Sequence record: NC_049947.1
Direction: 5' to 3' (one strand)
Length of the DNA: 46,703 nt
Origin: Escherichia phage 1H12
Below are positions 13 through 46,691 of the stretch, piece by piece. Numbering within the stretch: the first letter of the stretch is position 1; every line of letters begins with the position of its first letter. The position numbers and the translations under genes are program-made. Under the pieces are notes generated by a model. The model did no database searches. It was not told the origin of the DNA and was given only the letters and a program-made list of their open reading frames with translations.

Positions 13-190
13 TCGCGGGTTTTCGCTATTTATGAAAATTTTCCGGTTTAAGGTGTTTCCGTTCTTCTTCGTCGTAACTTAATGTATTTATTTAAAATAC
101 CCCCTGAAAAGAAAGGAAACGACAGGTGCTGAAAGCGAGCTTTTTGGCCTCTGTCGTTTCCTTTCTCTGTTTTTGTCCGTGGAATGAGCA
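13..190 (+). promoter_or_regulatory. cosB: cosB region (terminase small-subunit binding sites) upstream of nu1
   Basis: Sequence between the cohesive end and nu1 is near-identical to the lambda cosB region as recalled; individual R and IHF sites not mapped. Confidence 0.6.
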
Positions 191-710
191 ATGGAAGTCA
201 ACAAAAAGCAGCTGGCTGACATTTTCGGTGCGAGTATCCGTACCATTCAGAACTGGCAGGAACAGGGAATGCCCGTTCTGCGAGGCGGTGGCAAGGGTAA
301 TGAGGTGCTTTATGACTCTGCCGCCGTCATAAAATGGTATGCCGAAAGGGATTCTGAAATTGAGAACGAAAAGCTGCGCCGGGAGGTTGAAGAACTGCGG
401 CAGGCCAGCGAGGCAGATCTCCAGCCAGGAACTATTGAGTACGAACGCCATCGACTTACGCGTGCGCAGGCCGACGCACAGGAACTGAAGAATGCCAGAG
501 ACTCCGCTGAAGTGGTGGAAACCGCATTCTGTACTTTCGTGTTGTCGCGGATCGCAGGTGAAATTGCCAGTATTCTCGACGGGCTCCCCCTGTCGGTGCA
601 GCGGCGTTTTCCGGAACTGGAAAACCGACATGTTGATTTCCTGAAACGGGATATCATCAAAGCCATGAACAAAGCAGCCGCGCTGGATGAACTGATACCG
701 GGGTTGCTGA

Positions 711-736
<26 letters not shown>
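191..736 (+). CDS. nu1: terminase small subunit Nu1
   Basis: ORF 191..736; protein MEVNKKQLADIFGASIRTIQNWQEQGMPV matches lambda Nu1 with an N-terminal HTH. Confidence 0.95.
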
Positions 737-4417
<3,681 letters not shown>

Positions 4418-19049: not shown

Positions 19050-19062
19050 TTGTGGAGTGAAT

Positions 19063-21084
19063 ATGGCAGTACAGATTTCAGGTGTGCTGAAAGACGGTGC
19101 AGGAAAACCGATACAGAACTGCACCATTCAGCTCAAAGCAAAACGTAACAGCACCACAGTTGTGGTGAACACGGTGGCCTCAGAAAATCCGGATGAAGCC
19201 GGACGTTACAGCATGGATGTTGAGTATGGCCAGTACAGCGTCGCCCTGCTGGTTGAAGGTTTTCCGCCTTCACATGCCGGGACCATCACCGTGTATGAGG
19301 ATTCTAAGCCGGGGACATTGAATGATTTTCTGGGCGCTGCAACAGAAGATGATGTTTGTCCGGAGGCACTGTATCGTTTTGAAAAGATGGTGGAAGAGGC
19401 GGCACGCAACGCTGAAGCCGCCTCTCAGAGCGCAGCGGCAGCAAAGAAATCAGAAACAGCAGCGGCATCGTCCAGGAACGCGGCGAAAACATCAGAGACG
19501 AATGCAGGTAACAGCGCGAAAGCGGCAGCTTCTTCAAAAACAGCCGCACAAAACGCAGCAACAGCGGCAGAACGTTCAGAGACAAATGCCCGTGCGTCAG
19601 AAGAAGCCTCCGCAGACAGTGAAGAGGCTTCCCGCCGTAATGCAGAGTCAGCCGCTGAAAATGCCGGAGTCGCCACCACAAAAGCGCGGGAGGCCGCAGC
19701 AGACGCAACAAAGGCCGGGCAGAAAAAGGATGAGGCTCTGTCGGCAGCGACACGAGCTGAAAAGGCGGCAGACCGCGCAGAAGCCGCAGCGGAAGTGACT
19801 GCAGAGCCCTGTGCGAATATAGTGCCGCCGCTGCCTGATGTGTGGATACCGTTTAACGATTCACTGGATATGATTACGGGTTTTTCGCCATCTTATAAAA
19901 AGATAGTTATTGGTGACGATGAAATAACAATGCCAGGCGACAAGATTGTTAAGTTTAAACGTGCTTCAACAGCAACGTATATTAATAAGTCCGGCCAACT
20001 CAAGCTTGCTGAAGTTGACGAACCGCGATTTGAGCGCGATGGCTTATTGATTGAAGGACAGAGGACAAATTATCTGAGGAACTCAAATAAACCAGACTCA
20101 TGGACTGTTCATTCCGCACTGAATAAAACATTTGGCACTGATAAACAGGGGTTCAATTATGCCACGGTGACACCCACGGAAAGTATAGTGGGAACAACAG
20201 GTGGCTATACTGTGCATGGTGTGGTTGCAGCAGACAGATTCCCGCTGGCAAGTGGTGAATGTTTCACTTTTTCGTGCCGGGTTAAAGGCGCTAAAGCACG
20301 ATGCAGGTTAAGAGTTTCAGTTATTATTGGTGGAACAGATACCTTCTCTGCTGACTCTTATCTTGATCTGGATACCCGGATCGCAACAGTAAGCGGTAAT
20401 ACATCCCTTATAACAGCCAAAGCTGAACAACAGGGCGAGTGGACCTACTATGAGGCCACTTATACAGCTAATACGGACATTGATACCGTTAACTGTGCTT
20501 TTTATATGACAAATAAAATAAGTAATGAGCCATTCTATGATGACTCAACATTAACCATGACGACGCCGCAAATTGAACTGGGCAATACGGCATCGTCATT
20601 TATTGTAACTACAATGCCAACAACACGCGCAAGTGATGTAGTTACTATCCCATCGCAGAATAACCTGTCAACACGGCCTTTTACGGTATTGTGCGAAGTA
20701 AGCAGGAACTGGAGTACACCGCCCAATGTTGCGCCAAGGATATTTGATGTTGGAGGGCACAGTATTGATGATAATTATTTATCGCTGGGGTTTGTTGCAA
20801 CAGGAAAGATAAGCGCCAACGTAGGAATGGTTCAGCCACAAATTGCCTCAGATGGAGAAAGGTTCATTGTGGGTGTGAGAGCTAAATCTGATTTATCAGT
20901 AAATGCAATATGCAATGGTAATTATACAACAAACCTTAATGGTAAAATATTTGGAGTTACAGCAACATCGTACCGGTTTGGTGGGCAGACCGCAGCAGGA
21001 ACGCGTCATTTGTTTGGACACATCAGAAATTTCAGAGTCTGGTTTAAAGAATTAAATGACAGGCAAATCAAGGAGGCAGTATGA
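19063..21084 (+). CDS. stf: side tail fiber protein (lambda Stf-like N-terminus, unrelated C-terminal domain)
   Basis: MAVQISGVLKDGAGKPIQNCTIQLKAKRNSTTVVVNTV matches the lambda Stf N-terminus; Ala/Ser-rich low-complexity middle; C-terminal ~430 aa not lambda-like. Confidence 0.85.
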   Translation: MAVQISGVLKDGAGKPIQNCTIQLKAKRNSTTVVVNTVASENPDEAGRYSMDVEYGQYSVALLVEGFPPSHAGTITVYEDSKPGTLNDFLGAATEDDVCPEALYRFEKMVEEAARNAEAASQSAAAAKKSETAAASSRNAAKTSETNAGNSAKAAASSKTAAQNAATAAERSETNARASEEASADSEEASRRNAESAAENAGVATTKAREAAADATKAGQKKDEALSAATRAEKAADRAEAAAEVTAEPCANIVPPLPDVWIPFNDSLDMITGFSPSYKKIVIGDDEITMPGDKIVKFKRASTATYINKSGQLKLAEVDEPRFERDGLLIEGQRTNYLRNSNKPDSWTVHSALNKTFGTDKQGFNYATVTPTESIVGTTGGYTVHGVVAADRFPLASGECFTFSCRVKGAKARCRLRVSVIIGGTDTFSADSYLDLDTRIATVSGNTSLITAKAEQQGEWTYYEATYTANTDIDTVNCAFYMTNKISNEPFYDDSTLTMTTPQIELGNTASSFIVTTMPTTRASDVVTIPSQNNLSTRPFTVLCEVSRNWSTPPNVAPRIFDVGGHSIDDNYLSLGFVATGKISANVGMVQPQIASDGERFIVGVRAKSDLSVNAICNGNYTTNLNGKIFGVTATSYRFGGQTAAGTRHLFGHIRNFRVWFKELNDRQIKEAV

Positions 21085-21359
21085 AAGATTTAACTTTGAA
21101 ATTTCCTGGTAACAGAGAGTTTAAATCCTTCCTGTCATCTCTTGACTGGGAGGAGGATGAAGACCTCCAGAATAAACTGTTAGTCGATGAAATTGGTTTC
21201 ACCTACACAGAAACAGGGGTAACAGAAGAGGGAGAACCTGTCTGTGTCCGGAATGACGGTTATTTTGTCAACATTCGCATTCTTGATGACTTGTTTGATG
21301 TTTCTGTATTCTCTGATTATGTCGTGGAGCTGGAAACACCGCTTCGGGAATGGAGCTGA
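21081..21359 (+). CDS. hypothetical acidic protein, start overlaps stf stop (possible fiber assembly factor)
   Basis: 92-aa ORF whose ATG overlaps the stf TGA (ATGA); no recognisable lambda Tfa sequence. Confidence 0.5.
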   Translation: MKDLTLKFPGNREFKSFLSSLDWEEDEDLQNKLLVDEIGFTYTETGVTEEGEPVCVRNDGYFVNIRILDDLFDVSVFSDYVVELETPLREWS

Positions 21360-21371
21360 AAGGAGGAAATA

Positions 21372-21665
21372 ATGGATATAAGCCCCTTACTTCATGCACT
21401 TTGTGCTGTGGCTGCGCAGATACTGGTTGGTCTTTTTACCGGAAACTGGGCTTACGGAGCGATAGCCGGTTGTACGTTCTTCATTGCGCGTGAACATACC
21501 CAGGCAGAATATCGCTGGATTGAAATGTTCGGGCATGGCAAGCGAATGAATATGCCGTGGTGGGGCGGTTTTGATCCGCGAGCTTGGGATGTGGCAAGCC
21601 TGATGGATTTTGCTGTGCCGGTGGTGGCGTGTCTGCTGGTCTGGCTGTTGGTTAATCGTGGGTGA
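21372..21665 (+). CDS. hypothetical small membrane protein (two predicted hydrophobic helices)
   Basis: 97-aa ORF with RBS ggaggaaat 4 nt upstream; hydrophobic N- and C-terminal segments. Confidence 0.5.
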   Translation: MDISPLLHALCAVAAQILVGLFTGNWAYGAIAGCTFFIAREHTQAEYRWIEMFGHGKRMNMPWWGGFDPRAWDVASLMDFAVPVVACLLVWLLVNRG

Positions 21666-21756
21666 AAAAAGGTGAGCTGTATATGCAACGGAGGAAGAAA
21701 CCCCGTTGCTGGAAGCCAGGAAAAAGTATCGGGTGTTGCTGTCCTCGGATGTTGTG

Positions 21757-22614
21757 CTAATTGGGTGATAACAGATCCTGTGTATGGGAGTTTCCCTTTT
21801 TGCGTGCGTTGATGCTGGTAACGGCAAACGTCATGATGAACAAAACCGCGAATAAGACGACAATCGTCGGAGCTGGTGCGCTGTCGATAAAAAAGGACAA
21901 CCAGACACCAGTCATTGACACTATTACCGATATGCCAGTCGCCAGTAGGAGCGCAATATGAAAGCGTTGTGTCAGGAGTACCGCAATGGCGCCAGGCGCA
22001 ATGAGCAGAGAAATGGAGAGAATGATACCTACCGCTTTCAGCGTCGCCACAATGGTCAGAGAGACCATGCACAGCAGCCCATAATGCAGCCATCTCGTAT
22101 GCAAACCGCTTACCTGCGCCTGTTGATAATCAAAGCTGAACAGCAAAAAATCCCGCCATTTTACGCTAATAACAAGTGTAACCAGCCCGGCAATAATCAT
22201 CGTCTGGATTATATCGCCGATGGTTATCCCGAGCATGTCGCCGAAAAGAATATGGTCAAGATGTACGTCTGGTTTGACTGCAATATACAAGATCAGACCT
22301 GCGGCAAACATGCCAGAAAAAACAATCCCCATCACTGTATCTTGCTTGATTCGGCTGTTGTCTTTCAGGTATCCCGTCGCCACCGCGCAGAATACTCCGG
22401 CGACGAATGCCCCTGTAGCCAAAGGTAACCCCAGAATCCAGGCAAGCACGATGCCAGGAAAAACCGCATGACTCATCGCGTCACCCATCAGTGCCCAACC
22501 TTTCAGGACCAGAAAGACCGACAGCAGCGCACAGGGTATGGAAACTACCAGTGAAATCAGCAGTGCGTGACTCATAAAGGTGAACTGCAGTGGCTCCAGT
22601 AATAATGCCATCAT
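21757..22614 (-). CDS. sitD: manganese/iron ABC transporter permease SitD
   Basis: 285-aa polytopic membrane ORF; ABC-3 metal permease family; fourth gene of a sitABCD-like operon. Confidence 0.85.
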   Translation of the reverse strand: MMALLLEPLQFTFMSHALLISLVVSIPCALLSVFLVLKGWALMGDAMSHAVFPGIVLAWILGLPLATGAFVAGVFCAVATGYLKDNSRIKQDTVMGIVFSGMFAAGLILYIAVKPDVHLDHILFGDMLGITIGDIIQTMIIAGLVTLVISVKWRDFLLFSFDYQQAQVSGLHTRWLHYGLLCMVSLTIVATLKAVGIILSISLLIAPGAIAVLLTQRFHIALLLATGISVIVSMTGVWLSFFIDSAPAPTIVVLFAVLFIMTFAVTSINARKKGNSHTQDLLSPN

Positions 22615-23468
22615 GAGCGATCCTCCAGCGCCTTATGCGCACGCCGACGATTTGCCAAAAGCCCATGGGTGGGCGCAAAGACAAATGCTAAAAGAAACAG
22701 CAGTGTCTGCGCCACCACGATGATTCCACCTGTCGCGCCGTCCAGAAAGTAACTGACCCACGCGCCGAGGAAACTGGTTACACTGCCAATAGTTACAGCA
22801 ATCATGAGCAGGCGGGGAAAACGATCGGTTAACAACCATGCTGTTGCACCGGGAGTCACCACCAGACAGATCACCAGAAAGGCACCAACCGTTTGCAGCG
22901 CCGCAACGGTCGAAACCGACAGCAGGGTGAAGAAGAGGAGTTTTAATCTGCCCGGATGCAATCCAATAGCACGGGCGTGATTCTCGTCGAAAAAGGTCAC
23001 CATAAGATCTTTCCATTTGAAAAAAAGCACGATGATCGAGAGAATGCCAATGATAGTGAGTTGCAGGATATCCGCCGGATCGATTGCCAGAATATTGCCC
23101 AGGACGATGGTCTGAATGTTCACAGATGTCGGGTTCAATGACACCATAAACAGCCCCAGGCCAAAAAAGGACGAGAAGATCAGACCGATGATGGCATCTT
23201 CTTTTAAGCGGGTGCGTTGGTTAAGAAACAGCATGCTGCCCGCAGCCAGTCCGCCGGAAAAGAAGGCTCCCAGAGAAAACGGAAGCCCCAGCATATATGC
23301 CCCCGCAACACCCGGGACAATAGAGTGCGACAACGCATCGCCAATCAGCGACCAGCCTTTTAGCATCAGATAGCATGACAGGAAAGCGCAGAGACCGCCG
23401 ACCATCGCCGAGACCCACATCGCATTGAGCATATATTCATAGCTGAAGGGTTCCAGTAGCACGTTCAT
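22611..23468 (-). CDS. sitC: manganese/iron ABC transporter permease SitC
   Basis: 285-aa polytopic membrane ORF, stop/start overlap with neighbours. Confidence 0.85.
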
Positions 23469-24292
23469 CTTTCTTCCCTCTGCACCGCTGACGGTCGATG
23501 AGCCACAAAAGGGCGTTCATCGTCAGTAATAATGCTTTCTTCCGAGCCGTTAAGTGTGACATGGCGCAGTACGCCGCTAAAAGCCAGCTCTAGGTTCTCG
23601 GCTGTAAAAGTGGTGTCTGTCGGCCCGCTTGCCAGGACGGTGCCTTTGACCATGACCGTATAATCGCAAAATGTCGTGACGGATCCGAGATTGTGTGTTG
23701 AGACAAGCATCGTTTTGCCTTCCGCGCGTAACTCCCTCAACAGGCTGATGATTTTGGCTTCGGTTTTCACATCAACGCCAGTAAAAGGTTCATCCAGCAG
23801 GATCACATCACCCTGCTGTGCAATCGCTCTCGCCAGAAAGACGCGTTTCTTTTGTCCACCGGAAAGCTCGCCGATTTGTCGATGGCGAAAATTCACCATA
23901 TCGACACGTTCCAGCGCATCGGTGACAATTTGACGATCCCTCTTTTTGGCGATACGCAACATACCCATATGCCCATAGCGGCCCATCATCACCACATCTT
24001 CCACCAGTACAGGAAATGACCAGTCAACATCTTCTGACTGAGGGACGTAGGCAACCAGGTTTTTCTGTAACGCCTGTCGCGTGGGAATACCCAGAACAGA
24101 TATCTTTCCGCTGGTCAGACGCACAAATCCCATAATCGCTTTAAACAACGTCGATTTTCCGGAACCGTTTACCCCAACCAGAGCGGCAATAGATCCACTT
24201 GGTACTGTGAAGGATGCATCGCGCAGTGCTGTGTGCCCGTTACGCCAGGTGACAGTAACATCATTAACGACAATGCCTGCAGATTGCATCAT
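23465..24292 (-). CDS. sitB: manganese/iron ABC transporter ATP-binding protein SitB
   Basis: 275-aa ORF with Walker [10 protein letters not shown] and an ABC signature motif. Confidence 0.9.
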
Positions 24293-25206
24293 TATTTCTC
24301 CCTTTTCCCAGCTTTAATTCCCTGTACCAGCGTACTGGTAGTAACCTTAAGAAGGTCGATATACGTCGGTACCGGGCCGTTTTCTGTGCTCAGGGAATCG
24401 ACATAGAGCACACCGCCGTAGTGTGCGCCGGTTTCACGCGCAACCTGACGCGCTGGTTTATCGGAAATCGTACTCTCGCTAAAGACTGCCGGGATATGAT
24501 TTTTCTTAACTATATCAACAACCTTACGTACCTGCTGCGGTGTTCCTTGTTGATCGGCATTAATCGGCCACAGATAAAGCTCTTTTAGCCCCAAATCGCG
24601 TGCGAGATAAGAAAAAGCCCCTTCACTGGTGACCATCCATCGCTGATTCTCAGGGAGTTCCGTAATCTGCTTACGCAGGGGGGCAAGGGTTTGGGTAATC
24701 TTGGCTTTATAAGTATCGGCATTGCGTTGGTAGGTTTGTGCATTTGCCGGATCGTATTTTATCAACGCATCACGAATATTATCGACGTAAATCAGAGCAT
24801 TATCTGGCGACATCCATGCATGGGGGTTAGGTTTGCCCTCATAGGGTCCTTCGGTGATCCCTACAGGCGTCACACCCGAAGAGACAATTACTTCTGGAAC
24901 CCCATTGAGATGCTGGTAAAAGCGTTGGAACCACAATTCCAGATTCATACCATTGGCGAGAATCAGTTGTGCCCCCTGCGCACGTTTAATATCGCCAGGG
25001 GTAGGCTGATACTCATGAATTTCTGCACCAGGCTTGGTTATGGATGAGACTTCTGCAGCATCTCCCGCCACGTTTTTGGCCATATCCGCGATGATGGTAA
25101 ATGTTGTAATGACCTTGAATTTTTCAGTTGCACTTGCCTGAAATGCGATCGAGCAGGTGAGTGCGAGCCCCCCCAAGAGCATGGTTACTTTTTTTATCGA
25201 GTGCAT
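24292..25206 (-). CDS. sitA: manganese/iron ABC transporter periplasmic substrate-binding protein SitA
   Basis: 304-aa ORF with an N-terminal signal peptide; TroA/PsaA-like metal-binding protein. Confidence 0.85.
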
Positions 25207-25238
25207 AATTTAGTACCTATAGTGAGCAAAATTAGAAC

Positions 25239-25260
25239 AAACATAGCAACGGCTATGTTT
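25239..25260 (-). promoter_or_regulatory. putative MntR box in the sitA promoter
   Basis: Near-perfect inverted repeat AACATAGC-aacg-GCTATGTT 33-54 bp upstream of the sitA start, resembling the MntR operator as recalled. Confidence 0.6.
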
Positions 25261-25280
25261 TATAGCACAGCCTATACAAA

Positions 25281-25299
25281 ATGAAAATGATTATCATTA
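25281..25299 (-). promoter_or_regulatory. putative Fur box in the sitA promoter
   Basis: tgaaaatgattatcattag matches the Fur 19-mer consensus GATAATGATAATCATTATC at about 16 of 19 positions. Confidence 0.6.
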
Positions 25300-25607
25300 G
25301 CAGCTTTGAGGCCCAAAACAGGGATTAGGTTGTTTCCTGCTGGCGACGCGTTATTGAGGAAAAAAGTAAGGCAGCTAGTAGGCTTTGAAATAACGTTTTG
25401 CGGTTGGCTGATGCAATTTCGAGAGTGCATGTATTGAATGATTTCTAGCCGTTACTGATTTTCGTATTTTTTGTATGGGAGGATTTGCACCTCCCCCCAC
25501 CGAGCCTCCATGACTTTACTCCACTGTCTCTAGGGCTGCTGTGTGCCAGGAGCGGAAGCAGGGGGGGCCAGAGACTCCTTAAAAGTTGATAGCTCGTTTT
25601 GCAGGGA

Positions 25608-25690
25608 GACTTACACGGTAAGCGTTATTCCGAAGAGCTTAAAATTGAAGCAGTCAAACGGGTTGTTGAGCGTGTTTATGCGCTGCCATC
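25608..25690 (+). mobile_element. possible remnant of an IS3-family transposase orfA (N-terminal fragment only)
   Basis: Frame translating to GKRYSEELKIEAVKRVVERV resembles the conserved N-terminus of IS3-family OrfA; no intact ORF or inverted repeats found. Confidence 0.3.
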
Positions 25691-25893
25691 TGATTAATCG
25701 ACGGAAGCAGTTCCGTTTGGTCTATGATGCAGTTGTCCGGCAGGCGCTCTGTGACGCAAAAGAACGATAGGAGTAGCATTGAAGTGAACGAGGTTATGCT
25801 TGTCTTATATTATCCTCTATTTTAAAAACATCAGCTGGTTGTGTAAGAGTTTTTATTGTTTTATCTTGTTGACTTTGCTTTTATGAAAACAGA

Positions 25894-26664
25894 GTGATTG
25901 ATACAATGAAAACCTTAAGTGGGAAAGAGTTTAGGAAATTATTTAATCGTTATGAGACAGGATTCTATCTAAGTGAGTTTGAATACTTAAAGGACTTTGA
26001 TCCTTTGTTTCCTGAATGCGTAGGGAAAGAATTAAAGTTGGGTTATAAACGAAAAGTTGATGTATGGTGCGAAGAGGATGCTGCGCTATATGCAGAATTT
26101 ATAGCTACAAAAGAAAGGCTGAAAAGAGGCCGGTTAATCCTAAAAATAAACCAAGTGTGGTCGCGTGTATATCCTGCTTATATTTATGCAATTGAAGAAA
26201 GAATAAATGTCAGGGCAAAGGGGAGAGAGTCATTTAAGTATGAAACTGTGCAAGAAAAACAATGTAAACTTTCCATAATGTTAGATGGTCTGAAAGACCT
26301 TGAATGTGAAATAGCTATGATTTCAAGTGAGTTTGAAATTGAAAAACACTCTATGCACTATTTTTATATGATTTTTGATATTGAACGCTATATAAATGAC
26401 TGCAGTTACTTTGTTTTTTCTGCTGCTAAAGTTGTTAAAGGCGTGATTCAATGCATTGGTTACATTGACAAAAATAACAAAGCAAGTTGCGATGAATTTT
26501 ATTCAGGCAGCTATGAATGCTTGGATGATGATCAGGAAACACTGAACTATTTAAATGAATCATGCGCAGAGGGTATAGACGCTGATAAAGATCTCATCAG
26601 GAAGAATGAGTTATTAGCCTTATCCCTGAAGGAATTGTATCAACTTCTCGTTTCAAAAAAATAA
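25894..26664 (+). CDS. hypothetical protein (AT-rich orphan cargo gene, soluble, Cys-rich)
   Basis: 256-aa ORF in a low-GC island between the sit operon and attP; GTG at 25894 or ATG at 25906; no family recognised. Confidence 0.6.
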   Translation: MIDTMKTLSGKEFRKLFNRYETGFYLSEFEYLKDFDPLFPECVGKELKLGYKRKVDVWCEEDAALYAEFIATKERLKRGRLILKINQVWSRVYPAYIYAIEERINVRAKGRESFKYETVQEKQCKLSIMLDGLKDLECEIAMISSEFEIEKHSMHYFYMIFDIERYINDCSYFVFSAAKVVKGVIQCIGYIDKNNKASCDEFYSGSYECLDDDQETLNYLNESCAEGIDADKDLIRKNELLALSLKELYQLLVSKK

Positions 26665-26990
26665 CAAGTAATACGGCGAGCGATATGACGTGCCATGGGA
26701 TATCCGCACCCAGCAGCATGTTGTCTCCACGATGTCCGCAGTTCGCTCATAATAGACATTCACTACAGTTATAGTAGAAGGTATGCATGCTGCTGAGTGG
26801 GGAAAGTGTGAAAGAAAAGAAGACAGCTGCTTTGTTTGTCGTCACGTTTATCTTCATTGGCTATGCAAGTCGTAATACAAGGCGGGACAAAACTGAGACA
26901 CATAAGGCCTCGCAATGGCTTGCAAGGCCACACATGTATTGAGATGTTAATAAAATGTAGACTTGTAATTTTGATATAAATGGTAGAGAA

Positions 26991-27123: not shown

Positions 27124-27288
27124 CTGTTACGCCATATGGGCTGGACTGAAGCCGCAGACCTGATTGTTAAAGGTATGGAAGGCGCAATCAACGCCAAGAC
27201 TGTAACCTATGACTTCGAACGTCTGATGGAAGGCGCTAAATTGCTGAAATGTAGCGAGTTTGGCGACGCGATCATCAAGAACATGTAA
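27124..27288 (+). other. icd: attP core region carrying the 3'-terminal ~55 codons of host icd (isocitrate dehydrogenase)
   Basis: Translates to [53 protein letters not shown], the Icd C-terminus with a few substitutions; no upstream icd sequence, so it is a phage-borne att fragment. Confidence 0.8.
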
Positions 27289-27351: not shown

Positions 27352-27392
27352 AATCTTCCCCAAAACTTTCCCCAAAACCCTTCCCCAAAACT
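27352..27392 (+). repeat. three tandem arm-type repeats (cttccccaaaac), putative Int arm-binding sites on the P' arm
   Basis: cttccccaaaac ttt ccccaaaac cc ttccccaaaac immediately next to the int gene. Confidence 0.6.
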
Positions 27393-27401
27393 GGCTATTT
27401 T

Positions 27402-28544
27402 CTATGCTGTTTTGATATCTACGATAACCCAGTCTTTACCACGATCATCATTGTATCGGTCGGTCATTTTTCTGGATTTATGGCCTAACAACTTTTGCGT
27501 ATCCAGACCCTGTTCCCGATATAACCGTTCTGACAGAGATCGCTGCTCATGAAATGTGGGCGCAGTTCCTTGCTCCCATTTTATGCCACATTTTTCCCTG
27601 GCCTTTTTAAAAGCCGTTGTCAGAGTATTTGCAGAAACCTGGTCTCCTCTGTTTGCTTGAGAGGTAGTGTGACGGTAATGGACCAGATATTTACTAACAA
27701 CAGCATCCCTGCACTGAGATATAACTTCACGAAGGGTAATATTCAGAGCATCGCATTTCAGGTTAAGCGGAATAGCAAGTTTTGAACCGGTTTTTTCCTG
27801 AGTAATGTGCAACATGTCGTCCCAGATATCAGAGAATTTCAAATTGCAGATATCACCTAAACGTTGTCCAGTAACAAGAGCAAGTAGCATGCCGCATTTT
27901 AAATAGGGCTGCCGTCTGCTTACGCTTTCAAATATTGCCTGCCATTCGGGCAGTGACAATCTTTGGCGGTTTACTCGATTTCGCGGTTGTTTTGTTGCCT
28001 GCGCTGGGTTAAATCCTGGCGGAACATGTCCTGCGTGTTGTGCTTCTTTGAAGACGTCGATCAACACCATTCTCACGACTTGCGCCATCCTGTTATGACC
28101 TTCAGCCTTTACAGCATCAATTATTTCGGCAATATCAAGTGCGGTAATATCCTTGAGGTGTTGCATTCCACAATGCTCACGGAAAAGACGAATGGGTTTG
28201 CCTTTTTGCCGATAGGAGTTGGGTCTTAGTTCATTATGTTGCAGCCTGTCCTCCTGGATAGAAATATATTTATCAAGCCATTCTGTCACCGTAATTTCTG
28301 AGCGCCTGCCTTTCATTCTTTCCAGACGCTCATTGACGCTTAATATTTGTCGGGTACGTTGTTCAGCAATAATGGTATTTGCTTCAGTAGCAACTTGTTT
28401 TGCTTCATTCTCATCAGTTCCTAAGCTATGAAAACGACCGGATAGTGGATGTTTGTATTGCCAATATACCTTTCCGGTTCGCTTATCTAATTTGCAATAT
28501 AAATTGGGTATAGAGATTTTGTGAGATCGGGGTCTAGCAGCCAT
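27402..28544 (-). CDS. int: tyrosine site-specific integrase (icd-targeting)
   Basis: 380-aa ORF with a C-terminal tyrosine recombinase catalytic region (HxxR...Y), adjacent to attP. Confidence 0.9.
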   Translation of the reverse strand: MAARPRSHKISIPNLYCKLDKRTGKVYWQYKHPLSGRFHSLGTDENEAKQVATEANTIIAEQRTRQILSVNERLERMKGRRSEITVTEWLDKYISIQEDRLQHNELRPNSYRQKGKPIRLFREHCGMQHLKDITALDIAEIIDAVKAEGHNRMAQVVRMVLIDVFKEAQHAGHVPPGFNPAQATKQPRNRVNRQRLSLPEWQAIFESVSRRQPYLKCGMLLALVTGQRLGDICNLKFSDIWDDMLHITQEKTGSKLAIPLNLKCDALNITLREVISQCRDAVVSKYLVHYRHTTSQANRGDQVSANTLTTAFKKAREKCGIKWEQGTAPTFHEQRSLSERLYREQGLDTQKLLGHKSRKMTDRYNDDRGKDWVIVDIKTA

Positions 28545-41560: not shown

Positions 41561-42085
41561 TTATTGTTTGACCCATAATAGTTCATTGACATTGAATCCC
41601 AATTTTTGAGCAGTACGCACATAGTCTGCTTTTACATTATCTGGAATAGTTGGAGTCCGTGCCAGAATCCATAGGTATTCTCTGTTCGGACCACTGACAA
41701 GAGCATATTTATACTCATCATCCAGTTTGATTACATTATAGCCACCATAGAAGGGGCCAAAAAACGAAACCTTCAACGCTGCAGTTGTATTATCTCCTGT
41801 AAAGTATGCTTTACCTTCGCTCTCGCTCCATTTGTTTTTCGTTGGGTCATATCCACGATTAAGTACACTAATCCCTCCGTCGTTCCGTTTCCCATAAGTG
41901 GCGCTGACCTGTTCCAGACCACGTTCAAATCGGTTCTCAAGCCGAGCTATTTCATACCATTTTCCGAGGTAGCGGTTGGTGTCAAAATTTGTAATCGGCT
42001 GCACACCTTTAGGTGGTGTCGGGGCCTTACATGCTATCAGAGTGAAAGAGAGTGCAATGCCAGTCAACACAGGCCATAACTTCAT
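41561..42085 (-). CDS. blc: outer-membrane lipoprotein, bacterial lipocalin Blc family
   Basis: 174-aa ORF with lipoprotein signal and lipobox LIAC; YLGKWYEIARLENRFERG and SFFGPFYGGYNVI match lipocalin motifs. Confidence 0.75.
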   Translation of the reverse strand: MKLWPVLTGIALSFTLIACKAPTPPKGVQPITNFDTNRYLGKWYEIARLENRFERGLEQVSATYGKRNDGGISVLNRGYDPTKNKWSESEGKAYFTGDNTTAALKVSFFGPFYGGYNVIKLDDEYKYALVSGPNREYLWILARTPTIPDNVKADYVRTAQKLGFNVNELLWVKQ

Positions 42086-45656: not shown

Positions 45657-45950
45657 TTATTGTGAGCAATAGACACGCGCTTCCAGCGGAGTATAAATGC
45701 CTAAAGTAATAAAACCGAGCAATCCATTTACGAATGTTTGCTGGGTTTCTGTTTTAACAACATTTTCTGCGCCGCCACAAATTTTGGCTGCATCAACAGT
45801 TTTCTCCTGTCCAATTCCCGAAACGAAGAAGTGATGGGTGATGGTTTCCTTTGGTGTTACTGCTGTCGGTTTGTTTCCAACAGTAAACGTCTGTTGAGCA
45901 CATCCTGTAATAAGCATTGCCAGAGCGGCAGAAAACAACATTTTTTTCAT
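45657..45950 (-). CDS. bor: Bor lipoprotein (serum-resistance-associated outer-membrane lipoprotein)
   Basis: Internal ATG gives a 97-aa product MKKMLFSAALAMLITGCAQQTFTV matching lambda Bor. Confidence 0.85.
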   Translation of the reverse strand: MKKMLFSAALAMLITGCAQQTFTVGNKPTAVTPKETITHHFFVSGIGQEKTVDAAKICGGAENVVKTETQQTFVNGLLGFITLGIYTPLEARVYCSQ

Positions 45951-46504: not shown

Positions 46505-46691
46505 GAGGTTGCCCCGTATTCAGTGTCGCTGATTTGTATTGTCTGAAGTTGTTTTTACGTTAAGTTGATGCAGATCAATTAATACGATACCTGCGTCATA
46601 ATTGATTATTTGACGTGGTTTGATGGCGTAGATGCACGTTGTGACATGTAGATGATAATTATTATCATTTTGTGGGTCCTTTCCGGCGATC

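Follow-up and report, generated by a model that had tools for sequence, protein, structure and literature searches.

Gene Organization of the sit Operon

In the genome of Escherichia phage 1H12 (sequence record NC_049947.1), which was analysed as a single stretch of 46,703 nucleotides (the window), four co-directional genes are located on the minus strand in the order substrate-binding protein, ATPase, permease, permease (sitA-sitB-sitC-sitD):

24292..25206, minus strand: sitA, periplasmic metal-binding protein, 304 amino acids (ORF; Pfam PF01297, 8.9e-86)
23465..24292, minus strand: sitB, ABC ATPase, 275 amino acids (ORF; NCBIfam PRK15056)
22611..23468, minus strand: sitC, ABC-3 family permease, 285 amino acids (ORF; Pfam PF00950, 5.6e-83)
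21757..22614, minus strand: sitD, second ABC-3 family permease, 285 amino acids (ORF; Pfam PF00950, 1.5e-76)

Four overlapping reverse-strand genes had been described in an earlier note on this DNA, and the ORFs do lie where that note placed them, with overlaps of 1 nt between sitA and sitB (TAATG) and of 4 nt (ATGA) at both the sitB/sitC and the sitC/sitD junctions; the four genes are translationally coupled. Likewise, the substrate-binding protein and the two permeases named there correspond to the PF01297 match of SitA and to the PF00950 matches of SitC and SitD, while the reported Walker motif of the ATPase is the Walker A sequence GVNGSGKS(T), which starts at residue 40 of SitB and is accompanied by LSGG at residue 143, the Walker B sequence VILLDE at residue 163, and an H-loop at residue 199. 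SitA carries a signal peptide with an ASA end at approximately residue 26. All four ORFs are intact and their motifs complete, and comparison with the ColV-plasmid allele points to purifying selection on the four genes (dN/dS 0.10, 0.10, 0.10, and 0.29). The stop codon of sitD is TAG. No canonical intrinsic terminator was listed 3' of sitD by the terminator scan, and on folding, this region forms no more than a modest hairpin, with the T-run some distance away.

Family Assignment and Predicted Metal Specificity

The Pfam families found over the operon are ZnuA (PF01297), ABC_tran, and, twice, ABC-3 (PF00950). The earlier designation as a Sit-type metal transporter is upheld by more specific comparisons. 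Over its full length (1-274), SitB matches the NCBIfam model NF011630/PRK15056, "manganese/iron ABC transporter ATP-binding protein", with 592.8 bits at a cutoff of 393. In a PDB search, the best solved relative of SitA is YfeA of Yersinia pestis (E 4e-125, gapless over residues 24-297), with MntC of Synechocystis and a SitA fragment of Salmonella also among the best, while ZnuA structures give far weaker matches of approximately 1e-12. The predicted metal ligands of SitA, H64, H129, E195, and D270 (His-His-Glu-Asp), are conserved; in the gapless alignment they coincide with YfeA residues 76, 141, 207, and 282, which we take to be the ligands as numbered in the YfeA structure papers. A His-rich loop is absent from SitA, the whole protein of which contains six His residues. 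When the proteins were compared with characterised SitABCD systems, as the earlier note had advised, identities of 95-99% to the ColV-plasmid allele and of 70-86% to Salmonella were obtained; those to Phytobacter are 86-95%. The assignment of the proteins as Sit/Yfe-type and not Znu-type is thus supported at the level of sequence. For the orthologues of Salmonella, Shigella, and APEC, Mn2+ and Fe2+ are the known substrates (review PMC3852070).

It is exceedingly improbable that the importer is instead zinc-specific (ZnuABC- or AztABC-like) or dedicated to another metal. Such a reading could draw on the name "ZnuA" of the Pfam family to which SitA belongs, on the E-values of 1e-54 to 1e-58 obtained with the NCBIfam zinc models AztC, AztA, and AztB, and on the low-affinity transport of Zn2+ by Salmonella SitABCD (review PMC3852070). 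However, all Azt and Znu matches fall below the curated cutoffs (196.8 versus 350 for Azt; in the Znu equivalog models, 66.3 versus 268 for ZnuA and 78.4 and 70.5 versus 284 for ZnuB), whereas the Mn/Fe ATPase equivalog is passed; ZnuABC, considered in the earlier note as the contrary case, is not the best homolog. Ligands 3 and 4 of SitA are Glu and Asp, which is the Mn/Fe pattern, the His/acidic loop is missing, and the operator-like sites described below are of the MntR and Fur types and not of the Zur type. On the basis of the curated cutoffs and the PDB ranking, the zinc-transporter reading was rejected.

Predicted Promoter and Operator-Like Sites

Upstream of sitA, the following elements are predicted, of which the -35 and -10 hexamers were read directly from the sequence:

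25239..25260, no strand assigned: main predicted MntR operator, perfect palindrome AAACATAGC-CGTT-GCTATGTTT, -54 to -33 from the sitA ATG
25259..25267, minus strand: predicted extended -10, TGcTATAAA
25262..25275, no strand assigned: second inverted repeat of MntR type, located upstream of the main palindrome: ATAGG-CTGT-GCTAT, with one mismatch to ATAGC-n4-GCTAT and in overlap with the predicted -10
25282..25287, minus strand: predicted -35 hexamer TTTTCA, 4/6, 17-nt spacer to the -10
25283..25301, minus strand: predicted Fur box GCTAATGATAATCATTTTC, 17/19 to the consensus GATAATGATAATCATTATC, -95 to -77 from the sitA ATG

The palindrome at 25239-25260, AAACATAGCCGTTGCTATGTTT, had been called near-perfect and MntR-box-like; it is in fact a perfect 9+4+9 inverted repeat with 0 mismatches to AAACATAGC-n4-GCTATGTTT, and its 18 specified bases are those found at the mntH promoter of E. 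coli K-12. It covers the predicted transcription start, at approximately 25250-25254, and is the sole match of its type in the window even at three or fewer mismatches (0.03 expected). The Fur-box-like 19-mer of the earlier note was also recovered, ending at 25301, which is 1 nt beyond the 25300 given there; at three or fewer mismatches, 0.03 such matches would be expected in the window. It reaches into the predicted -35 with its 3' end and is kept in the plasmid allele, in phage 21, and in several Enterobacterales. Both the main palindrome and the Fur box are retained in the plasmid allele at approximately 3.3% divergence. The operator-like sites thus overlap the -35, the extended -10, and the start site of a predicted promoter for which the consensus promoter scanner gave no call, because its -10 ends in A; the GTGCTATA motif of the extended -10 is kept in eight of the ten aligned Enterobacterales sit promoters.

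The second MntR-type repeat, at 25262-25275, is absent from the earlier note. In the ColV-plasmid allele it is perfect (ATAGC-TTCT-GCTAT), and tandem MntR-type repeats in a fixed 19-bp register are present in all 20 Enterobacterales sit promoters compared, 0 of 300 shuffles matching each. Since the GCTAT half of the upstream repeat coincides with the -10 region, part of this conservation could reflect the promoter and not binding of MntR. Together with the adjacent Fur box, the two repeats span the region from the predicted -35 to approximately +10. It is tentatively proposed, with rather more doubt than confidence, that sit promoters in Enterobacterales, this phage copy included, follow the layout ATAGC-n4-GCTAT-n5-ATAGC-n4-GCTAT, with centres 19 bp apart, and that, if both repeats are occupied, two MntR dimers would be bound on roughly the same face of the DNA and could repress cooperatively. 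In that case, a horizontally carried importer would be shut off more sharply by Mn than the resident mntH. In relation to the literature covered by this analysis, the tandem layout may be new.

The main palindrome could also be regarded as an RNA hairpin, i.e., as a leader attenuator or a terminator in place of a protein operator. The terminator scan does list 25239-25260 (9-bp stem, 4-nt loop, followed by GTTCTAATTT), and the repeat is probably located at the extreme 5' end of the transcript; however, the stem contains just three G-C pairs, the T-tract is weak, and the predicted start lies inside the repeat, so that the full hairpin may not be transcribed. Across the species, moreover, the half-sites ATAGC/GCTAT are invariant, the spacer alone varies, and compensatory stem changes are absent, which is the signature of protein recognition; identical half-sites are found at mntH, and MntH is one of the importers that, according to a review, Mn-bound MntR represses (PMC3852070). 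The attenuator/terminator reading, highly improbable as it is, was rejected on this conservation pattern in favour of an operator. With a sitA-lacZ fusion of Salmonella, repression by Mn and Fe was seen to require mntR and fur (PMC8970401), and repression of sitABCD by MntR and Fur has been summarised for Shigella and E. coli (review PMC3852070). From the operator-like sites, metal-dependent regulation by MntR and Fur would be expected for the phage sit copy as well.

Genomic Context and Distribution

The sit operon is situated between the side tail fibre gene (19057-21084) plus two small ORFs on the one hand and attP on the other, in agreement with its earlier placement between the tail fibre genes and attP:

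21730..25394, minus strand: sit module common with ColV-type plasmids, approximately 96.7% identity (positions 31-3695 of the query 21700-25450)
27354..27390, plus strand: attP, which contains three YYTTCCCCAAAA subsites and does not differ from the attP annotated in phage 21

The int gene occupies 27402-28544 of the window (27401-28543 of record LR595860.1). Approximately 2 kb separate the sit promoter from attP; they comprise ORFs with no assigned function and, beside attP, a 3' fragment of icd. None of the five neighbouring ORFs (21081-21359, 21372-21665, 25543-25770, 25894-26664, and 26787-26942) has a Pfam match, and they belong to PHROGs of unknown function; among the three of them that were scanned with PADLOC, there was no credible match. 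A T-arm-like hairpin upstream of sit (approximately 25477-25495) was considered as a remnant of a tRNA-derived attachment site and rejected, with no tRNA predicted by ARAGORN in the window and no Rfam match at this position.

The homology with the plasmids extends from approximately 27 nt past the sitD stop codon to approximately 190 nt upstream of the sitA ATG. A sit operon is found in 2337 of 5426 complete E. coli genomes, and the module occurs, partially or in full, in 46 phage records. It is also found on plasmids, within islands flanked by IS elements, and in a different lambdoid prophage that occupies another site. In E. coli 118UI, an identical operon is located at the attR end of an icd-integrated prophage. 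Among lambda-like phages of the infant gut, 70% carry sitABCD, and a Fur box precedes the operon in each case (Mathieu et al. 2020, PMC6969025); in LF82/Perceval lysogens sitA-D are transcribed 4-13x above the prophage background (PMC9928086). Being located in the nonessential b region, having its own predicted promoter, and being present in some but absent from other related phages, sit is a lambdoid moron.

Proposed Function in the Lysogen

Gene content, family assignment, motif presence and conservation, purifying selection, and genomic context were computed in this analysis, while the literature supplied the transport specificity, the repression of sit orthologues by Fur and MntR, and the evidence that sit is transcribed in a lysogen; for the phage copy, we infer the position of the promoter, the occupancy of both MntR sites, and the benefit to the lysogen. 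Taken together, the locus is very probably a complete sitABCD operon, predicted to encode a functional Mn2+/Fe2+ importer repressible by MntR and Fur and carried as a moron in the b region of a phage-21-like lambdoid temperate coliphage. SitA would capture the metal in the periplasm via its His-His-Glu-Asp site, SitC and SitD would constitute the membrane channel, and ATP hydrolysis by SitB would drive import. The operon would be read in the direction opposite to the tail genes from a sigma-70 promoter of its own, with the Fur box covering the -35, and with the -10 and the start site lying under the two tandem MntR-type repeats. Since sites for host repressors cover the promoter, ample Fe and Mn should keep the operon silent in a lysogen, and scarcity of the two metals should derepress it. 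The lysogen would thereby gain a second route of Mn/Fe uptake and better tolerance of peroxide.

Two other roles have to be weighed against this. There is very little likelihood that the operon is inert baggage, that is, decaying or silent DNA which originates from imprecise excision and offers nothing to the lysogen. The proximity to attP, a position at which host DNA can be picked up by aberrant excision, the absence of sit from approximately 30% of related phages (PMC6969025), and the failure to find a clear terminator 3' of sitD would be in line with it, but the four intact ORFs with complete motifs and dN/dS values of 0.1-0.3 against the plasmid allele are not what decay would leave. Nor is sit contiguous with the host genes on the icd side, the intervening 2 kb or so including ORFs of unknown function; the same module recurs in the other settings listed above, and transcripts of a near-identical copy are present in LF82 lysogens (PMC9928086). 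The probability is also small that sit chiefly serves the phage in lytic growth, as an auxiliary metabolic function expressed by antiterminated pL read-through across attP, and not the lysogen. In the circular or vegetative genome, sit shares the strand of int and xis and comes downstream of them across attP, only weak terminator-like hairpins lie in between, and the minus-strand genes of the lambda b region are delayed-early pL transcripts. Against this stand the predicted promoter of sit itself with its host metal-repressor sites, which is kept wherever sit occurs, including nonphage contexts, the maintenance of the same module on plasmids and islands, and the expression of sit in uninduced lysogens (LF82 Perceval, PMC9928086).

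With a role in the lysogen, the locus would represent textbook-style lysogenic conversion, in which a temperate gut coliphage spreads a virulence-associated metal-uptake operon wired into the Fur and MntR regulons. The carriage of sit would bear on how well E. coli fares in the infant gut and inside macrophages.

Comparison with Known Systems

The earlier reading of the locus as phage-borne sit cargo is correct, and it agrees with the deposited SitABCD annotation and with the published description of this phage group; publication and annotation of sit in this very phage had, however, come first, and the confirmation therefore adds no new biology. That prior publication had escaped the earlier note. 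What is gained in practice is a clean annotation, in which the operators have exact coordinates, a second MntR-type repeat is recorded, and the limits of the module common with ColV plasmids are set.

Escherichia virus Lambda_2E9 (LR595860.1), in which SitA-D are annotated at the same location, matches 21500-25700 with 100% identity, the window numbering running one position ahead (+1). Apart from the starts of sitB and sitD, which the RAST annotation of that record places one codon later, there is essentially no difference; MntR is unmentioned in the main text of Mathieu et al. 2020 (PMC6969025). Phage 21 (OL657228.1) shows 99.7% nucleotide identity over the region, with identical SitB and SitD, and shares the order side tail fibre, two small ORFs, sitDCBA, attP, and int, as well as the same attP and integration at icd. 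It differs by a few substitutions, one of them in the upstream repeat (ATAGGTTGTGCTAT), and its annotation labels the sit system "iron/magnesium". In the Perceval prophage of the adherent-invasive E. coli LF82 (OV696612.1), the sit region is near-identical, whereas the phage backbone is another one, with a size of 50 kb and the extra morons nmpC and emrE.

The SitABCD systems of ColV/ColBM plasmids of APEC/ExPEC (represented by pMS1718-1, NZ_CP097717.1) consist of the same four genes at 95-99% protein identity and share the Fur box and the tandem MntR repeats with the phage copy, but they are located between crcB and IS1, differ by approximately 3.3% at the nucleotide level, and possess another C-terminal tail of SitD. 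Sit of APEC transports Fe and Mn and contributes to peroxide resistance and virulence (PMC3852070). SitABCD of Salmonella SPI-1 has the same order and family at 70-86% identity (locus of subsp. arizonae), including tandem MntR repeats, and is repressed by Fur and MntR (PMC8970401, PMC3852070); its context is a chromosomal pathogenicity island and not a phage. YfeABCD of Y. pestis, which includes the best solved structure, YfeA, is of the same operon order and family, while Yersinia is without MntR control (PMC3852070). At the mntH promoter of K-12, finally, the identical AAACATAGC-n4-GCTATGTTT operator is found with a Fur-like box approximately 20 nt upstream; a second tandem MntR repeat is absent there, giving a single site versus two at sit, and the gene, itself under MntR/Fur control, encodes an NRAMP Mn importer, which belongs to a transporter family unrelated to Sit.

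Gene Content and Transporter Family

Four overlapping reverse-strand genes had been proposed in an earlier note to form a metal uptake operon, and the open reading frames coincide exactly with the positions named there:

24292-25206, minus strand, sitA, substrate-binding protein, ORF of 304 aa
23465-24292, minus strand, sitB, ATPase, ORF of 275 aa
22611-23468, minus strand, sitC, permease, ORF of 285 aa
21757-22614, minus strand, sitD, permease, ORF of 285 aa

The junctions sitA/B, sitB/C, and sitC/D read TAATG, ATGA, and ATGA, that is, overlaps of 1, 4, and 4 nt, which are the usual sign of translational coupling. These overlaps are lost in the RAST annotation of Escherichia virus Lambda_2E9 (LR595860.1), where sitB and sitD start at the second of two adjacent ATGs; PGAP and the annotation of phage 21 (OL657228.1) choose the first ATG, which restores the TAATG and ATGA coupling. 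The Walker motif ascribed to the ATPase is found as Walker A GVNGSGKS at residue 40 of SitB; LSGG follows at residue 143, Walker B (VILLDE) at 163, and the H-loop at 199.

By Pfam, SitA belongs to PF01297 (8.9e-86) and SitB to ABC_tran, whereas both permeases, SitC and SitD, match ABC-3 PF00950 (5.6e-83 and 1.5e-76, resp.). In the NCBIfam search, SitB reaches 592.8 bits with the equivalog PRK15056 "manganese/iron ABC transporter ATP-binding protein" (cutoff 393), and each of the zinc models AztA/B/C and ZnuA/B scores under its own cutoff. The best solved structure for SitA is Yersinia pestis YfeA (4e-125, gapless over residues 24-297), followed by Synechocystis MntC (~3e-104) and a Salmonella SitA fragment (3e-86), while ZnuA chains reach only about 1e-11 to 1e-12. 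Residues H64, H129, E195, and D270 of SitA correspond to YfeA 76, 141, 207, and 282, the metal ligands of that protein. SitA has only six histidines, and its sequence contains no His/acidic loop. By tblastn, SitA/B/C/D are 98.0, 98.9, 99.3, and 94.7% identical to the allele of ColV-type plasmids, 86-95% to the Sit proteins of Phytobacter, and 74, 76, 86, and 70% to those of Salmonella enterica subsp. arizonae. From the NCBIfam cutoffs, the structure ranking, the ligand residues, and these identities it follows that the best homologues are Sit proteins and not ZnuABC; a zinc transporter is ruled out by the curated cutoffs together with the ranking of the structures.

Values of dN/dS against the plasmid allele (sitA, sitB, and sitC 0.10 each; sitD 0.29) indicate that the genes are under purifying selection. 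The higher value of sitD, against ~0.10 for sitA-C, is due to a C-terminal cluster, in which 8 of the 15 SitD substitutions fall within the last 14 residues (21757-21800); this suggests that the cytoplasmic tail, encoded next to the module boundary, may be relaxed or recombinant.

The sit Promoter Region

On the minus strand, the sequence 5' of sitA reads ...GCTAATGATAATCATTTTC ATTTTGT ATAGGCTGTGCTAT AAAAC ATAGCCGTTGCTAT GTTT... (31 nt) ATG, and contains the following elements:

25283-25301, minus strand, Fur-like 19-mer, 17/19 to consensus
25282-25287, minus strand, predicted -35 TTTTCA
25262-25275, second repeat ATAGG-CTGT-GCTAT, directly upstream of the main palindrome
25259-25267, minus strand, predicted extended -10 TGcTATAAA, 17-nt spacer from the -35
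25239-25260, main palindrome AAACATAGC-CGTT-GCTATGTTT

The MntR-box-like palindrome, previously called near-perfect, is in fact perfect, each arm being one base longer than reported; it is the sole match in the 46.7-kb window even at 3 mismatches (0.03 expected). The Fur-box-like 19-mer likewise stands (0.03 matches expected at ≤3 mismatches), running 1 nt past its former end coordinate. The K-12 mntH promoter holds AAACATAGC-AAAG-GCTATGTTT 13 nt upstream of the mntH ATG, with a Fur-like box ~20 nt farther upstream. All 18 specified bases are identical, so that the phage palindrome is an exact copy of that of host mntH, and the Fur-then-MntR order is shared.

The second repeat had been overlooked in the earlier note. 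In the ColV-plasmid allele, which keeps both Fur box and palindrome at ~3.3% divergence, it is perfect (ATAGC-TTCT-GCTAT). The tandem pattern ATAGC-n4-GCTAT-n5-ATAGC-n4-GCTAT, with its register fixed at 19 bp, was tested upstream of sitA in the window and in 20 Enterobacterales sit loci fetched with SitA, among them Phytobacter, Shimwellia, Pantoea, Erwinia, Buttiauxella, Atlantibacter, Salmonella, Klebsiella, Raoultella, Citrobacter, and Enterobacter. It is present in the window and in 20/20 loci with at most 2 mismatches per 20 specified bases, as a rule 62-78 nt 5' of the ATG, and at every locus 0/300 shuffles equalled the observed score. The repeat is absent from the non-enterobacterial relatives checked (a Rhizobium and several other genera). 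Half-site bases are constant and spacers variable across the Enterobacterales loci, and the aligned promoters show no compensatory stem changes, which fits recognition by a protein; that the palindrome at 25239-25260 acts as an RNA hairpin is unlikely in view of this pattern.

The hexamers TTTTCA/TGcTATAAA plausibly constitute the sigma-70 promoter of the operon; they are not among the calls of a consensus promoter scanner, because the -10 ends in A. The Fur box would then lie over the predicted -35, the upstream repeat over the predicted -10, and the main palindrome over the predicted start site. Both MntR repeats may be occupied.

Some 270 nt 5' of sitA, a short way beyond the plasmid-shared module, lies a G+C-rich, tRNA T-arm-like hairpin, GGGAGG-TGCAAAT-CCTCCC (25477-25495, minus strand), in which neither ARAGORN nor Rfam finds a tRNA; nearby, the annotators of phage 21 mark an unconvincing IS3-like fragment. 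A second Fur-box-like 19-mer, CAAAATGATAATAATTATC (46654-46672, minus strand, 16/19), is located towards the right end of the window, downstream of bor, among small hypothetical ORFs of the minus strand.

Position in the Phage and Distribution of the Module

The phage is a phage-21-like lambdoid of the genus Jouyvirus and essentially Lambda_2E9, to which the window shows 100% identity across 21500-25700, at a coordinate offset of +1, and in whose record SitA-D are annotated. The operon does lie between the tail fibre genes and attP, ~2 kb from the latter:

19057-21084, side tail fibre gene, separated from the operon by two small ORFs
27136-27288, icd 3' fragment
27354-27390, attP, same sequence as the attP annotated in phage 21
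27402-28544, int (27401-28543 in the record)

These neighbours place the operon in the b region, with transcription opposite to that of the late genes.

The module common to plasmids spans ~21730-25394 and occurs in at least four settings, the latter three from E. coli Z142-4, E. coli XH992, and pMS1718-1: an icd-integrated phage-21-like prophage (at whose attR end E. coli 118UI carries the identical operon); a different lambdoid prophage, which carries lom and borders on uspF/ompN; a chromosomal island close to sodC, littered with and flanked by IS elements; and plasmids of the ColV type, where its neighbours are crcB and IS1. The two prophages hold the module at the same place, behind the tail fibre genes, and in one orientation. 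With presence of ≥80% of the module as threshold, 2337 of 5426 complete E. coli genomes are carriers (1780 chromosomal and 1061 plasmid places); it is further found in 46 phage and 1066 plasmid records.

At 21663-21761 (plus strand), across the gap that separates a 97-aa ORF from the sitD stop, there is a partial Rfam match to the candidate E. coli intergenic sRNA IS009 (RF02111). It scores 51.7 bits (E 7e-10), under the gathering score of 117, and aligns with the ends of the model but lacks most of what lies between them; the match is probably due to intergenic sequence shared among prophages, not to a functional RNA. Between sit promoter and attP, an AT-rich stretch (GC about 0.38-0.42) contains a 256-aa ORF (25894-26664, plus strand), with conserved counterparts in phage 21 and in the icd prophage of E. 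coli 118UI. Pfam gives no match for it and PADLOC none that is credible; its sole assignment is to PHROG 20520, a family of unknown function. A further moron is one possibility, a defence gene another. Two deposited genes (record coordinates +1) run against late and nin gene flow and are likely further morons:

41561-42085, minus strand, Blc lipocalin
45657-45950, minus strand, Bor lipoprotein

Function and Comparison with Known Systems

Gene content, family, motifs, and context bear out both the observation and the interpretation of the earlier note. SitABCD carries Mn2+/Fe2+ in Salmonella, APEC, and Shigella and is repressed by Mn-MntR, with virulence phenotypes summarised (review PMC3852070); Fur and MntR both repress a Salmonella sitA-lacZ fusion (PMC8970401). 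In the LF82 prophage Perceval (OV696612.1), whose sit region is near-identical to that of the window, sitA-D are morons transcribed in the lysogen 4-13-fold over prophage background (Misson et al. 2023, PMC9928086). By analogy with these orthologues and near-identical copies, the phage operon would encode Mn/Fe transport, be repressed by Fur and MntR, and be expressed in a lysogen, which would presumably benefit.

That the operon is inert cargo is unlikely: its motifs are intact, its dN/dS values lie at 0.1-0.3, and the near-identical copy in LF82 is transcribed. It may play a role in the lytic cycle, during which extra sit transcription from pL across attP would be possible; against such a role, the cassette retains in every context its own promoter with predicted metal regulation.

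The sitABCD operon of this phage is already known, being annotated in GenBank and described in print. The source paper of this infant-gut collection of lambda-like coliphages is Mathieu et al. 2020 (PMC6969025), which reports sitABCD in 70% of these phages together with a Fur box 5' of the operon, and the main text of which does not mention MntR; the sibling ev/Lambda_ev records carry an operon identical to that of the window. The only detail possibly under-described is the conserved tandem MntR-type operator, two repeats at sit in contrast to the single one at K-12 mntH.
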